A program made the position numbers. This document shows positions 31,431-37,400 of a DNA stretch of 42,636 nucleotides, piece after piece. The DNA lies in NCBI GenBank assembly GCA_044222065.1, contig JBGAOA010000039.1:1-42636 (forward strand), read 5' to 3'. This DNA is from Candidatus Eiseniibacteriota bacterium. Its GTDB lineage: Bacteria; Eisenbacteria; RBG-16-71-46. Position 1 is the first letter of the stretch. Each line of letters starts with the position of its first letter.

Positions 31431-34400
31431 GAAGCGGGTGACGACGCGGCTCACCGCGCCGGAGGCGAGATCGGCCTTGACGATCTCCCGGATGAAATCC
31501 TCGCGCTCGGACTCGGACATGACGACCTCGATGGGGAAGCCGCGCTCGAACGCGCGAACCGGCGCGCGGCGCGGCGGACGGCGGCAGGGAAGAGGAGGGA
31601 AATAACGGCATCCGGCCGCGCCTGTCCAGCCGCGCCCGGCCGGGGCTCGGAAGCGCCCGTGCGTCCGCACGGGGCGGGCGGATCGTGCACGTTGCACGTC
31701 CGGCGTCGGCGGGCGGGCGATTCCGTGCGAGCTGCGAGATCTGACCCGGGCCGCACGACTCCCGGACTTGTGCGAGGCGGTCGAGGCGCTAGAATCGCGC
31801 GCGTTCCGTCGTCATTGGCACCCGCTTTCCTCTCCCAATCTCTCCGGAGGCGGTCGTGTTCGCGTCCCGCTCTGCTCCCTCGGCGGCCCTCTTCCTCGCG
31901 CTCGTGCTGGCCTTCGCCTCGCCGGCCGCGGCCGTCACCGTTCCCGCTCAGTTCGTGGTCGAGAACGCCGTCACGAACTCGACCTTCAACGTGCCGGTCG
32001 GCATGGCGTTCCTGCCCGACGGCCGGTTCCTCGTCGCCGAGAAGCAGGGCCGCGTCCTCATGGTGAAGAACGGCCTGCAGCAGGCGGCGGTCGTGTTCTC
32101 GAACCAGAACGAAGTCCTCGACAACACGGACCGCGGGTTCCTCGGCGTGGCGGTGGATCCGAACTACTTCGTGAACCACTTCGTCTACTTCCTCTACACC
32201 GTGGACCCGGACTCGAACGGGGTGGACGACAATCTCTACGGGTTCGGACGCCTGACGCGTTACCGCATGCGCACGACCGGCGACACGAACACGGTGGACC
32301 CGACGACGCGCACCGTGCTCATGGGCACCGACTGGCGCCACGGGCCGACGATCCTCTCGAACTCGCACACGATCGGCGCGCTGCGCTGGGGGCGCGACGG
32401 CTCGCTGCTCGTCTCCTCGGGCGACGGAGCGGACTTCAACGGCATGGACGCGGGCGGCCGGCAGCCGACGGGCTTCGGCCCCGGCAAGACCGACCCGTAC
32501 GAGGACATCGGCGCGTTCCGCGCGCAGGACATCACGAGCCTCAACGGCAAGATCCTGCGGATGAACCCGCTCACGGGTCACGGCTACGCGAGCAACCCGT
32601 ACGCGACGTCGGATCTCAACTCGAACCAGTCGAAGGTCTACCTGTACGGCGTTCGCAACACGTTCCGCTTCGGCGTGCGACCGGGTACGGGCTCGACCGA
32701 CACGACGACGGGCTTCCCCGGTCAGGTCGCGATGGGCGACGTCGGCTGGGACACGTGGGAAGAGCTGAACATCAGCACGGCGCCCGGGCAGAACTTCGGC
32801 TGGCCGTGCATCGAGGGGCCGTTCCCGGCGGGCGCGTACCAGGCGGCGACGCCGGCGCACAACGACTGCAGCAGCGTCGGCACGCCTTCGAATCCCACGG
32901 GCTACACGTACCCGCCGTCCTACTGGCACCACACGACGCCGAGCCTCAGCAATCCCGAAGGCGTAATGGGCAACGCGTCGGTCGGCGGCGTGTTCTACAC
33001 GGACTCGCTCTATCCGAGCGCCTATCGCACGCGCTACTTCTTCGGCGACTACGTCGGTTCGTTCGTCCGCGTCGCGACCTTCGATTCGAACGGGCTATTG
33101 ATCTCGAACGATCCGTTCGGCGACAACATGGACAACCCGGTGGACTTCGCGCGCAATCCGCTCGACGGAAACGTGTACTACGTCTCGATCACGACCGAGC
33201 AGGTCCGCCGCATCCGCTGGACAGGCACGACGGGCGGGAACGCGGCGCCGATCGCACAGGCGCTTGCGACCCCCTCGAGCGGCGGCGTGCCGCTCAACGT
33301 GTCGTTCTCGAGCGCGGGGACCTACGACCCGGACAACAACACGCTCACGTACGCGTGGAACTTCGGCGACGGCGGCACCTCGAGCGCGCAGAACCCGAGT
33401 CACACGTACGTCGCGCCGGGCGCCTACATCGCCACGCTGACCGTCACCGACAGCCGCGGCGGCGTCGGAACGCGCAACGTCTCCATCAGCGTCGGCAGCG
33501 GCTCGGTGTTCCCGACGACCGCCGTGCTCGACGACTTCAACCGGCCGAATGGTCCGATCGGCGGCGCGTGGGTGAACCAGACGTCCGCGCTCTCGATCGT
33601 CAGCAACACGATGCGCGAGACCGGGCTCACCGCGACCACCGTGTGGAGCGGCCAGGAGTTCGGCGCGGACCAGGAGGCGTACATCACGATGCAGACGATC
33701 ACGCCCGGCGCCGAGGAAGTGAACCTGATGCTCAAGGTCCAGGGCCTCTCGTGGAGCGACGGTCACATCGAGGTGCGCTACGACGACAATCCGGGCCGCG
33801 TGCGCGTCGGCACGTACAGTCCGGCGCTGGGCTGGCAGGCGTGGGGCGAAGTGAACCCGCTCACGTTCTCGCCCGGCGACCGGTTCGGCGCGCGCGCGTT
33901 CGCCTCGGGACTCGTCGAGGTGTTCAAGAACGGCGTCGTGCAGGGGCAGGTGTCGGTGCTCGGCTGGCCGTTCGCGGCGAACGGCGGATACGTCGGCCTG
34001 ACCATCACGGGCGCGAACGCGACGATCTTCGACGACTTCGGCGGCGGCGACTGGGTGCCGCAGCCGCCGGTCCCTGTCGTTCAGGTGCTGTCGCCGAACG
34101 GCGGCGAGAACTGGGTCGGCGGCAGCTCGCACACCGTGACCTGGCTCGCGACCGACGACATCGGCGTCACGTCGGTGGACGTGGACTTCAAGGACGGCGC
34201 GACCGCCCCGTGGATCCCGATTGCGATCAACCTCTCGAACAGCGGCAGCTTCACGTGGTTCGTCCACAACATGCCGACGACGGCGGCGCGCGTTCGCGTG
34301 CGCGCGCACGACCTCTCGGGCAACGTCGGCGCCGACTCGAGCGACGCGAACTTCACGATCTCGGCGACGCCGGGCGGCATCGTGCCGACGACGCTGCGCG

Positions 34401-37400
34401 ACTTCTTCCAGCCCGGCACGCAGCCGCTCCGCGGCGGAGACTTCGTCTCGAGCAGCACGTGCAACCAGTGCCACTCGGGCTACGACAGCGCGGTCGAACC
34501 CGGCTTCAACTTCAAGGGCGTCATGATGGGACAGGCGGCGCGCGATCCGCTGTTCTACGCCTGCCTCGCCGTCGCGGAGCAGGACGCGCCGTCATCGGGC
34601 GACCTGTGCATCCGCTGTCACTCGCCGGGGGCGTGGCTGTCGGGCAAGAGCCAGCCGACGAGCGGGGCGAACATCGACGCGCTCGGGCGCGACGGAGTGA
34701 ACTGCGACTTCTGTCACCGCATGGTCGACCCCATCTACCAGCCGGGCGTGAGCCCGGTCGAGGATCTCGCGGTGCTGAACGGCATGCTGCCGGCGCACGT
34801 GCCGACGACGTACGGCAACGGCCAGTACGTCGTGGACAGCGACACGCGCCGTCGCGGGCCGTTCGCGGACGCCGCGGCGCCGCACTCGTTCCTGCAGTCG
34901 CCGTTCCACACGAAGAGCGAGATGTGCGCGACGTGCCACGACGTCTCGAACCCGGTGTTCGACCGGACCGGTCCTTCGGACTACACGCCGGGCCCGCTCA
35001 ACGCCGCCGCTCCGGCGATCGCCGTGAATTCGCTCATGCCGCTCGAGCGCACGTACAGCGAGTGGCTGAACAGCGCGTACCCCGCCGGCGTCTACGCGCC
35101 GGACTTCGCGGGGAACGCCCCGGGCGGCATCGTGTCCGACTGCCAGGGCTGTCACATGCGCCAGGTCACGGGGCGCGGCTGCAACGACGTCAACGCGCCG
35201 GTGCGGAACGACCTCCCGGTGCACGATCTCACCGGCGGAAACGCGTTCATGCCGGGCGTGATCGGCACGCTCTATCCGGCCGAGACCGACACCGCGGCGC
35301 TCAACAACTCGGCGAACCGCGCGCGGGCGACGCTGCAGAAGGCGGCGCTGCTCGACGTGACCGTCGCGGCCGAAGGCGACAGCTTCCGCGCGAGCGTGAA
35401 GGTGACGAACCGCACCGGACACAAGCTGCCGACGGGATACCCCGAAGGCCGGCGCATGTGGATCTCGGTCGTCGCGCGCGACGAGAACGGCGCGGTCGTC
35501 TACCAGTCGGGCCACTACGACGGCGCGACCGGCGTGCTCACCGAGGACGCGGACGCGCGCGTGTACGAGGCGCACCTCGGCATCTCGCCGGCGCTCGCGT
35601 CCGCGATCGGGCTCGCGCACGGACCGTCGTTCCACTTCGCGCTCAACGACACGCTCTACAAGGACAACCGCATTCCGCCGCTCGGCTTCACGAACGCGGC
35701 GTTCCAGCCGTTCGGCGGCGCGCCGGTGGACCCGACGATGCCGGCGCCGCGATACGCCGACGGACAGAACTGGGACACGGCGACGTACCCGCTGCCGGGC
35801 TCGGCGCGGTCGGTCGCCGCGACGCTCTACTACCAGACGACGTCGAAGGAGTACGTCGAGTTCCTCGCCGCGCAGAACACGACGAACGGCGCCGGCGCCA
35901 CGCTGCTCAACGCGTGGACGAACAACGGCCGCGGTGCGCCGGTTCCGATGGTCGGCGACTCGGCGACGATCGAAATCGTCGGCACGGGGGATCCGGTCGC
36001 GCGTCCGCTCGCGTTCCGCGTGCTTCAGAACCCGTTCCGCGGCACGCTCGACCTGTCGCTGTCGCTGCCGCGCGCCTCGGACGTCACGCTCGAGGTGCTC
36101 GACGTCACGGGCCGGCTCGTGCGGCGCACGCCGTACGGACGCCTCGCCGCGAGCGAGCATCACCTGCGCTGGGACGGGCACGACGCGTCGGGCGGAAGCG
36201 CGGGCCCGGGTCTCTACTGGGTCGTCGCGCGCGTGGACGACCGCCGGCTCGTGAAGACCGTGGTGAGGCTGCGCTGAGACCCACGGGAGCGTCGTGAGCG
36301 GCGCGGCCCCCGGAGCCGCGTCGAACCCGTGCGCCGGGCGCGGTCTCGTCGCCGCGCCCGGCGCGCGCCCCACTTCGCGGAGCGCTTCGACGCGCGGCTC
36401 GCGCTCGCGAGGCGCTGGATCGCCGAGGCGCCGCGGCGCCGATCGCGCGGAACTCCACGGTGAGTTCCCGGTCACGACGGCGAGGGAGAGCGCCACGCGG
36501 CCCCTCCGCGGGACGAGGCGGACGGACGAACGGCCGGCGCCGTTCGCGCTGCGGGCACGCGAAGCAGTCCTAGCGCCGTCGGGGAGCAGGGGGCGCAGGC
36601 GCGTCCGATTCGCCGCGCGAGCGCCCGGAGGCGAGCGCCGCGCCGAGTCCCGCGCCGACGCCGGCGCCGACCGCGAGCCCGACGATCGCGTCCCCGAGGC
36701 GCGAACCGGCGACGATACCCACGGCGGCGCCCAGTCCGGCTCCGAGCGCGACACCGAGCAGCCTGCGCACCACGTCGTCCTGTCGCCGTTCCATCGCGCC
36801 CTCCCCGCGCCGGACGCGCACGTGCCGTGCGCCGTCCTTCCGAACCGCAGGATCGGCCCCCGAGTCGCGACGCGCCGCGGTCGCGCGACCAGCGATGCGG
36901 CGAACGCGCCGTGCGCGGGGAATCGCGATGCGACCGCGCGTCAGCGCGCGCGCGCGTCGCGGTAGCGCGCGGTCGCATCCTCCCAGTCCACGACGTTCGC
37001 GAACGCCGCGACGTACTCCGCGCGGCGGTTCTGGTAGCGCAGGTAGTAGGCGTGCTCCCACACGTCGATGCCGACGAGCGGCGTGCGGCCCGCCGTGAGC
37101 GGCGAATCCTGGTTCGGCGTCGTCTCGACGCGCAGCGCGCCCGCCGCGTCGCACGAGAGCCACGCCCAGCCGCTTCCGAACACCGAGAGCGCCGCGGCCG
37201 AAAGCTTCTCGCGGCACGCTTCGAAGGCGCCGAAGTCGCGCTCGACCGCCTTCGCGAGTTCGCCGGACGGCTGCTTCGCGCCCGACTTCGCGAGGCTCGT
37301 CCACAGGAGCGAGTGGTTGTAGTGCCCGCCGCCGTGGTTGCGCACCGCGGCGCGCAGGTCCTCGGGCACCGCGGCGAGATCGCGCACGAGTCGATCGAGC

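Follow-up and report, generated by a model that had tools for sequence, protein, structure and literature searches.

The window analysed here comprises 42,636 nucleotides of contig JBGAOA010000039.1 (assembly GCA_044222065.1) of Candidatus Eiseniibacteriota. The gene of interest (Table 1) stands alone, with glnS upstream and a gene for an Fe/Mn superoxide dismutase downstream, both on the minus strand. The GSDH, PKD and five-CxxCH architecture given in the initial annotation was found in full in one open frame. The motifs lie at residues 869, 918, 950, 1024, and 1096, and 0.003 are predicted from composition. In six RNA runs, 6% to 18% of the words were present; three of them, taken together with one DNA run, gave short contigs of low depth, inside the gene and outside it alike.

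Table 1. Features of the multiheme gene and the evidence for each; positions count along the window and residues along the encoded protein.
Feature	Position	Strand	Basis
Whole gene, 1473 aa, GTG start, single open frame	31856..36277	+	
Sec-type signal peptide, residues 1-26, Ala-Ala-Ala end, no lipobox	31856..31933	+	Read by eye
GSDH-family β-propeller (PQQ-dependent sugar dehydrogenase-like)	31934..33229	+	PF07995 E 7e-28, residues 45-321; boundaries estimated
PKD domain, residues 462-543	33239..33484	+	PF18911 E 2e-21
Domain without Pfam match, about residues 550-735	33503..34060	+	41%-62% identity in close homologues
Ig-like domain, about residues 740-842	34073..34381	+	Big_7 PF17957 E 1e-3 at 740-814, below cut-off
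Pentaheme PHC-family domain, residues 845-1372, helical heme cap and Ig-like stem	34388..35971	+	AlphaFold model, 5ZE8 fold match, profile matches
Five CxxCH heme-attachment motifs, starts 34460, 34607, 34703, 34925, 35141	34460..35155	+	
Four predicted distal heme ligands, Met891, His1010, His1123, His1189	34526..35422	+	Alignment to 5ZE8/MccSep
Glu1064, site of MccSep heme-2 Cys ligand C239	35045..35047	+	Alignment
Tyr1195, site of MccSep catalytic selenocysteine U325	35438..35440	+	Alignment
Predicted type A T9SS C-terminal sorting domain, about residues 1385-1473, D-x-x-G-R loop motif	36008..36274	+	Genome tail profile and fold

The predicted signal peptide, judged by eye, has the hydrophobic core and Ala-x-Ala site of T9SS type A cargo. 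The propeller presumably retains the His and Arg-Asn motifs of s-GDH and lacks the two C-terminal PQQ-binding Arg residues; a search of 46 family genomes returned no pqqC, its control being silent too. The domain at about residues 550 to 735 has a lectin-like look by eye.

The AlphaFold model of the pentaheme domain, which has no hemes, has a pLDDT of 94 and matches the pentaheme cytochrome c552 of Thermochromatium tepidum (PDB: 5ZE8) with a Z-score of 24.1 and an rmsd of 2.7 Å over 338 residues; profile searches matched 5ZE8 (E 2e-13) and MccSep (E 3e-5). 5ZE8 belongs to the PHC family, as do sPHC and lPHC of cable bacteria, Gsu2801 of Geobacter and PtdA, and the window protein has that family's five CxxCH motifs in a helical cap as well as its Ig-like stem at the C-terminus. 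The likeness to 5ZE8 covers the fold of the whole domain and the motifs align, but identity is about 25%, the Cys of the 5ZE8 PLCQT motif is replaced by Glu, and the His after heme 1 by Met. In those parts of their published descriptions available to us, the PHC members known so far are soluble or periplasmic, and none has a surface-sorting tail. An ESM Atlas search with the heme domain returned clusters without names at 0.89 to 0.91.

The second relative is the polysulfide reductase MccSep/ExtKL of Geobacter sulfurreducens (PDB: 9WT8; NF040886), which shares the five hemes, the Ig-like stem and a GH-x-x-P-x-G loop reaching heme 2, and which gives weak but recurrent profile matches to the window protein. 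It differs in being a periplasmic tetramer, and the window protein scores 20.9 bits on NF040886 against a cut-off of 250. Heme 2 is the active site of MccSep (10.1101/2025.11.18.688581). Because Cys239 is replaced by Glu1064 and Sec325 by Tyr1195, the protein has neither the His/Cys heme 2 nor the Sec/Cys at position 325, the Sec/Cys chemistry of MccSep cannot run in it, and polysulfide reductase activity was ruled out. The Cys and His of each CxxCH are 99% to 100% conserved in the family alignment, and the predicted distal ligands recur in the 181 family rows (Met891 in 174, His1010 in 178, His1123 and His1189 in 181 each). In the same rows position 1064 is Glu in 148, Gln in 24, Asp in 5, and Cys in none, and position 1195 is Tyr in 154, Phe in 14, and His in 8. 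That both catalytic positions of MccSep are swapped yet strongly conserved suggests an open catalytic heme and not a wire. PMC11976967 classes PHC members as potential catalytic cytochromes.

On a profile derived from 60 tails of this genome that exceed the cut-off, with no cytochrome among their proteins, the C-terminal tail reaches 70.4 bits and ranks 109th of 211; the best reversed-protein control gets 12.3 bits. This bears out the initial annotation, which had the protein share its tail with the other T9SS cargo of the genome. Altogether 204 proteins of the genome end in such a tail, PorU itself included, and the window tail is mid-rank among them. TIGR04183 gave no match to it at E ≤ 0.01, its score lies short of the TIGR04183/PF18962 cut-offs, and it is absent among 150 scored places of the genome; many homologues of the protein do have PF18962. 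The tail has the seven-stranded CTD fold and, at the extreme C-terminus, the β3-β4 Gly motif of type A CTDs (PMC11285876). In structure searches the model matched the tails of PorU (Z 11.6), mirolase (Z 10.5, 1.8 Å), NucA (Z 9.6), and PorZ (Z 9.4), as well as FlgD (Z 8.8). Four T9SS tails were the top fold matches in two independent models; generic Ig folds score nearly as high (Vpr, Z 10.5; α2-macroglobulin, Z 9.9). The FlgD_ig profile matches residues 1401 to 1459 with 39.4 bits against a cut-off of 27, and a flagellar reading of the tail was ruled out by the 204 unrelated proteins that end in it.

The host encodes the SprA/Sov translocon (512 bits), PorU (469.5 bits), and PorV (eight loci over cut-off) of a canonical T9SS. 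The porU gene adjoins porV, several loci have PorV genes as neighbors of tailed genes, and SprA occurs in 118 of 121 genomes of the phylum. PorM/GldM and PorN/GldN were detected in the positive control G003 and in 0 of the 121 genomes, very divergent forms being possible; searches run without a positive control found GldL_N in 0 of 121 and, in this genome, no over-cut-off matches to PorL/GldL, PorK/GldK, or PorP. A GldK-like match (contig C75) belongs to an FGE-sulfatase-type protein far below cut-off, and the PorP matches are in fact PorV genes. A canonical T9SS is proposed to draw its power from the PorL/M-PorK/N module (PMC8754138), and the missing matches thus weigh against export here. 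Since PorK/L/M/N went undetected, the system is not a canonical T9SS. The Ccm maturation genes listed in the initial annotation are in place: contig C58 has ccmA/B/C/E/F, and C89 has another ccmF.

The pentaheme domain occurs in 56 of the 121 phylum genomes, and at E ≤ 1e-20 its PHC subfamily numbers 4569 proteins or more. The tail is present on 110 of 120 listed homologues and at 27 of 29 loci of the phylum. SprA was found in 8 of 9 genomes with a tailed homologue versus 0 of 15 with a tail-less one, in a comparison of 24 loci hand-picked from 77 and confounded by lineage. Other phyla replace the tail with tags of their own: among 20 homologues scanned, MYXO-CTERM (2) and IPTL-CTERM (1) exceeded their cut-offs, and dockerin-like, PEP-like, and Chloroflexota-type tails and lipoboxes were seen by eye on others. 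In about 7 of the 181 family rows a plain signal peptide comes with neither tail nor anchor, which implies that the domain can function in the periplasm. The GSDH-PHC fusions sit in separate clades, a single clade being rejected (p-AU 3e-53). With the sequence and fold of the tail, SprA/PorV/PorU in the host, and the match between tail and SprA, T9SS-type export of a multiheme cytochrome, as initially annotated, is well supported.

The reading we favor, at a probability of roughly 0.6, is a Sec- and Ccm-matured heme enzyme that leaves the cell through a T9SS translocon without the known motor. Sec would carry the protein across the inner membrane, and Ccm would attach the five c-type hemes in the periplasm, where the protein would then fold. 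SprA/PorV would move the folded protein over the outer membrane by way of its C-terminal tail, running without a recognizable PorL/M motor or PorK/N ring; PorU would probably cleave the tail off and may anchor the protein to the surface. Secretion of the pentaheme protein is likely and, given secretion, heme loading before export is somewhat more so. Outside the cell the pentaheme domain would most likely be a redox enzyme, in which four six-coordinate hemes (three His/His and one His/Met) would feed electrons into heme 2 or draw them from it. The distal site of heme 2 is predicted to be open, with Glu1064 and Tyr1195 lining it. The fused propeller may donate electrons internally; the porin-cytochrome conduits of the cell or soluble shuttles are alternative candidate sources. 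The PHC/MccSep fold and the conserved, altered pocket speak for an enzyme more than for an electron wire, and we hold a catalytic role to be fairly probable. Our leading guess for the chemistry, made with low confidence in the identity of the substrate, is reduction of peroxide or another small O/N-substrate and not MccSep-type polysulfide reduction. The protein with five hemes and a T9SS tag from this uncultured wastewater bacterium is probably, then, a heme-loaded redox enzyme outside the cell.

A T9SS-exported protein that only carries electrons, receiving them from porin-cytochrome conduits and handing them on to minerals, humics, or partner cells, either as a surface terminal cytochrome of the MtrC/OmcA kind or as a nanowire subunit, is the less likely alternative to weigh first. 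MtrC and OmcA of Shewanella are Ccm-matured, surface-exposed decahemes that are moved in the folded state, and MtrC, a lipoprotein, leaves the cell through T2SS and docks on MtrAB. The window protein differs from such MtrAB-tied decaheme lipoproteins in its five hemes, its PHC fold, its lack of a lipobox, and the lack of co-occurrence with MtrB. A carrier role would suit a genome rich in multiheme proteins, which has an MtrB/PioB with a DmsE-type decaheme at C35:52507-55536 and two further barrel-like genes inside multiheme clusters. Several of these heme proteins are tailed. The hexaheme protein at C72:35381-36886 and the frameshifted paralogue on C84, both reported initially, were recovered, the former with six CxxCH and the tail, the latter with a frameshift near C84:18035 and six distinct CxxCH over two frames; new are C85:5961-8780 and C85:8887-11682, with two CxxCH each and tails that pass the TIGR04183 cut-off, and C89:6247-7215, a choice-of-anchor V protein with one CxxCH. 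The C72 hexaheme is weakly MtrC-like (Foldseek E 9e-8, TM 0.12), and no solved fold stood out for its heme part, the tail having filled the match list. In genomes with the pentaheme domain versus those without it, a C85 barrel occurs in 29 of 56 versus 10 of 65 and the tailed hexaheme in 22 of 56 versus 4 of 65, which would favor a carrier, the genomes being kin and not independent, but MtrB shows no association (16 of 56 versus 20 of 65); moreover, in 22 of the 56, MtrB and the two other barrels tested are all missing. According to PMC11976967, PHC hemes I, III, IV, and V align with the archaeal nanowire AvECN. Against this, the conserved Glu/Tyr pocket at the MccSep active site and the bulky flanking domains better suit an enzyme.

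A sorting or Ig domain that does not lead to SprA export here, leaving the cytochrome periplasmic or sending it out through a secretin of the type IV pilus/T2SS kind, is a quite improbable reading of the tail. The genome does hold two secretins in pilus-type clusters, which together with the undetected motor and ring genes, the match of the tail to FlgD, and the tail-less, periplasmic-looking homologues would fit such a route; the ending of 204 proteins in the tail, PorU among them, the retention of SprA across the phylum, the PorV genes beside tailed genes, and the tracking of SprA by the tail speak against it. Very unlikely is the version in the initial annotation, extracellular electron transfer needing no porin-cytochrome conduit: the 22 genomes without the barrels tested would agree with it, but that count covers three barrel families in incomplete MAGs, the host itself has the MtrB/DmsE pair and two more barrel-cytochrome clusters, and a protein on the surface offers no path of hemes across the outer membrane, so that surface export itself moves no electrons over it.

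The protein resembles the Bacteroidota type A CTD cargo (gingipains, mirolase, NucA, PorU, and PorZ; TIGR04183/PF18962) in its signal peptide, its seven-stranded CTD with the β3-β4 loop Gly and the SprA, PorV, and PorU of its host, and differs in being multiheme with predicted covalent hemes and in a host without detectable PorK/L/M/N or PorP. Fungal cellobiose dehydrogenase and the PQQ-dependent pyranose dehydrogenase AA12 are secreted proteins that join a sugar dehydrogenase, a domain with one b-type heme, and binding modules; they may offer a working analogy to the c-type pentaheme protein, in which PQQ binding is putative. A multiheme cytochrome is a kind of cargo not known for T9SS. A T9SS review (PMC11205867) contains 0 occurrences of “cytochrome” or “heme,” and among the papers that our literature search listed there was no earlier one on a multiheme cytochrome as T9SS cargo.

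More tentatively, and with doubt prevailing, an ancestral-type T9SS of SprA, PorV, and PorU, with neither motor nor ring, may export heme-loaded multiheme enzymes in Eisenbacteria and related FCB lineages. The gene would then encode a self-contained extracellular redox machine, in which the quinoprotein-like propeller oxidizes a sugar or similar donor and sends the electrons by way of four hemes to a new Glu/Tyr heme site, and the pentaheme domain would define a cross-domain family of surface heme enzymes with its own export tag in each phylum.

If the favored reading is true, covalently hemed multiheme redox proteins would join a T9SS cargo hitherto made up of hydrolases, adhesins, and virulence factors, and cytochromes would gain, next to T2SS and pilus-type export, a third route out of the diderm cell. 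A survey of extracellular electron transfer based on porin-cytochrome clusters alone would overlook such proteins. The large PHC subfamily, mostly surface-tagged, has an active site unlike that of MccSep, and its reaction can be assayed. For the Eisenbacteria, with about 200 tailed proteins per genome and no trace of the motor, the system makes it possible to test directly whether SprA/PorV is able to secrete in the absence of PorL/M.

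The gene at 31856-36277 of the window is one open frame of 1473 aa. It lies between two genes of the opposite strand, glnS and one for a superoxide dismutase. From N- to C-terminus, its product begins with a signal peptide (by eye), a GSDH propeller and a PKD domain; next come a domain without assignment and an Ig domain, followed by five CxxCH motifs (residues 869-1100; 0.003 expected by chance from composition) and a FlgD_ig-type tail. The multiheme and tail architecture described in the initial annotation is real. Metagenomes from sludge, bioreactors, wastewater and biofilms contain nearly identical DNA: half or more of the sequence words are found in 14 of the 24 runs listed, and one DNA run covers 30/30 bins. 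Homologues with names are in most cases from Candidatus Eisenbacteria.

The tail had been proposed to be the sorting domain of this genome's other type IX secretion (T9SS) cargo, with weak likeness to TIGR04183. A TIGR04183 search of the genome gave 150 places, 124 of them above cut-off; the window tail is absent from these and from a separate scan of the window protein. A profile built from 60 of the tails so found, none borne by a cytochrome, matched 211 proteins, at the C-terminus in 204, and gave the window tail 70.4 bits (rank 109), with 12.3 for the top reversed-protein control. Residues 845-1473 were modeled with AlphaFold (pLDDT 94), and the tail fold obtained matches those of PorU (Z = 11.6), mirolase (Z = 10.5, 1.8 Å), NucA (Z = 9.6) and PorZ (Z = 9.4), and FlgD (Z = 8.8) ranks behind four T9SS tails. 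The fold alone is no proof of a T9SS tail, because generic Ig folds reach Z = 10.5 and 9.9. The tail of the modeled C72 hexaheme protein gives fold matches in the same order. The window tail also has the D-x-x-G-R loop, described as required for secretion in PMC11285876.

The pentaheme domain (residues 845-1372) has the fold of T. tepidum pentaheme c552 (5ZE8, Z = 24.1) and matches MccSep in profile comparison. It belongs to the PHC family of PMC11976967, which includes PtdA (10.1101/2023.11.21.568154). MccSep, according to 10.1101/2025.11.18.688581, has four bis-His hemes and an active site at heme 2, with Cys239 as ligand and Sec325 adjacent, whereas the window protein has Glu1064 and Tyr1195 instead. 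In the 181-row family alignment, the Cys position is occupied by Glu in 148, Gln in 24 and Cys in 0 rows, and the Sec position by Tyr in 154. Four predicted distal ligands (Met891, His1010, His1123, His1189) are conserved. We infer from these positions that heme 2 would be open and catalytic, with chemistry unlike that of MccSep; a distal Glu or Gln is reminiscent of diheme peroxidases. At least three clades have GSDH propellers joined to the domain, in two cases with malectin too, which hints at an internal electron donor; PQQ binding by the propeller is doubtful. In other organisms, fusions to a lysyl-oxidase domain, nine further hemes and CBM96 were seen (homologues P0184, P0173, P0139).

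At E ≤ 1e-20, shorter proteins include at least 4569 relatives of the pentaheme domain; of the 120 listed, 110 end in the tail. The domain is present in 56 of the 121 Eisenbacteria genomes compared, and 27 of the 29 loci read there have the tail. Some homologues are already called 'T9SS type A sorting domain-containing protein' in databases. The T9SS tail is carried by 23 of 148 cluster representatives, and beyond FCB the C-terminal ends differ: those read by eye we take to be dockerin-like (Phycisphaerae), short Chloroflexota-type, PEP-like (one) and archaeal lipoboxes. Among 20 homologues scanned, MYXO-CTERM exceeded its cut-off in 2 and IPTL-CTERM in 1; MYXO-CTERM proteins reach the surface via T2SS, according to 10.1101/2023.06.07.544157. 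In about 7 of the 181 rows, the protein has an ordinary signal peptide and ends with the domain, with no further element, which counts against a strictly extracellular role. SprA occurs in 8 of the 9 genomes whose homologue is tailed and in 0 of the 15 whose homologue is not, a match confounded by lineage and based on 24 of 77 loci chosen to span taxa; the one SprA-less case, a contig of 2.8 kb, has possibly been misbinned. A tree was built from 63 of the 181 rows, with groups defined after inspecting an earlier tree; on it the tail requires 8 changes, and a single clade is rejected for the tail (p-AU 1e-10) and for the GSDH fusions (p-AU 3e-53).

Six proteins of the genome combine the tail with CxxCH: the window protein, its frameshifted C84 paralogue and the C72 hexaheme protein, as initially annotated, two on C85 and one on C89. 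Of 33 predicted proteins with at least two CxxCH, 5 have the tail. The C85 pair are predicted, from sequence, to be further heme cargo. The hexaheme protein is present in 26/121 phylum genomes, with the tail on 118 of 119 homologues among the matches listed; its heme part has no clear match among solved structures.

Features of the window and of other contigs (C) of the genome
Feature	Location	Remarks
Chemotaxis gene cluster	window 3192-16616	includes probable globin-coupled sensor (by eye)
Cassette	window 19334-23300	TlpA-like thioredoxin, small lipoprotein, DUF3570 protein, ApbE flavin transferase, 7-CxxCH cytochrome
Probable outer-membrane barrel	window 28321-29505	signal peptide; last residue Phe; no match in Pfam/NCBIfam search
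Fe/Mn superoxide dismutase	window 36941-37675	twin-arginine-like leader; convergent with pentaheme gene
C84 paralogue	C84:16992-19669	tail + CxxCH; short deletion with frameshift near C84:18035 in assembled sequence; additional N-terminal single-heme domain, in homologues weakly matching GEGP diheme family
Tandem beta-propeller + diheme proteins	C85:5961-8780, C85:8887-11682	CCP/MauG- or MbnH-like; tails above TIGR04183 cut-off
Choice-of-anchor V protein	C89:6247-7215	NF041895; one CxxCH + tail
C72 hexaheme protein	C72:35381-36886	N-terminal beta-sandwich with invariant N-x-L-G-M-H-C motif
Multiheme cluster	C89:41239-50444	42 CxxCH
Multiheme cluster	C85:16318-22256	34 CxxCH
Multiheme cluster	C35:27765-55536	19-20 CxxCH
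Multiheme cluster	C72:22617-27032	18-19 CxxCH

T9SS transports folded proteins and Ccm works in the periplasm. The Ccm maturation genes reported earlier were recovered (ccmA, B, C, E, F and a second ccmF). SprA (C118), PorU adjoining PorV (C77) and eight PorV loci score above cut-off in the genome, and GldM, GldL, GldN, GldK and PorP gave no above-cut-off match there. Across the phylum, SprA occurs in 118/121 genomes (this tally and that of MtrB take in one genome flagged unpublished, G020), and GldM, GldN and GldL_N in 0/121; a Prolixibacteraceae genome used as positive control matches both the GldM and GldN profiles. The proposed power train of T9SS is PorL/M and PorK/N (PMC8754138), and because its genes were undetected, the system is a T9SS translocon without known motor, which may be motorless or have a divergent motor. 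One or two MAGs labelled Bacteroidota, and a Zixibacteria chromosome, likewise gave no match to GldM or GldN. The genome also has two secretins in pilus-type clusters, and a possible alternative is that the window protein exits through these.

A route to extracellular electron transfer without a conduit, as first suggested, is not upheld: MtrB/PioB (237 bits, cut-off 240; PF11854 E = 1e-80) and a DmsE decaheme are neighbors in this genome, barrel-like genes lie within the C85 and C89 multiheme clusters, and export to the surface does not take the place of a conduit. Taken together, the four large multiheme clusters (C89, C85, C35, C72) include barrel-like genes and MtrB/DmsE. Across the phylum, in counts where kin genomes are not independent, MtrB is independent of the pentaheme domain (16/56 genomes with vs 20/65 without), the C85 barrel leans with it (29/56 vs 10/65), and 22 of the 56 have none of the three barrels. 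The window protein thus does not need MtrAB; a self-contained or shuttle-fed enzyme would account for this pattern equally well.

We found no earlier report of multiheme T9SS cargo in the open literature searched (nothing relevant in the accessible parts of PMC3534657 and PMC5317091), and by term counts 'cytochrome' and 'heme' are absent from a T9SS cargo review (PMC11205867). The window gene is a real feature that joins two known kinds, T9SS cargo and the PHC family.
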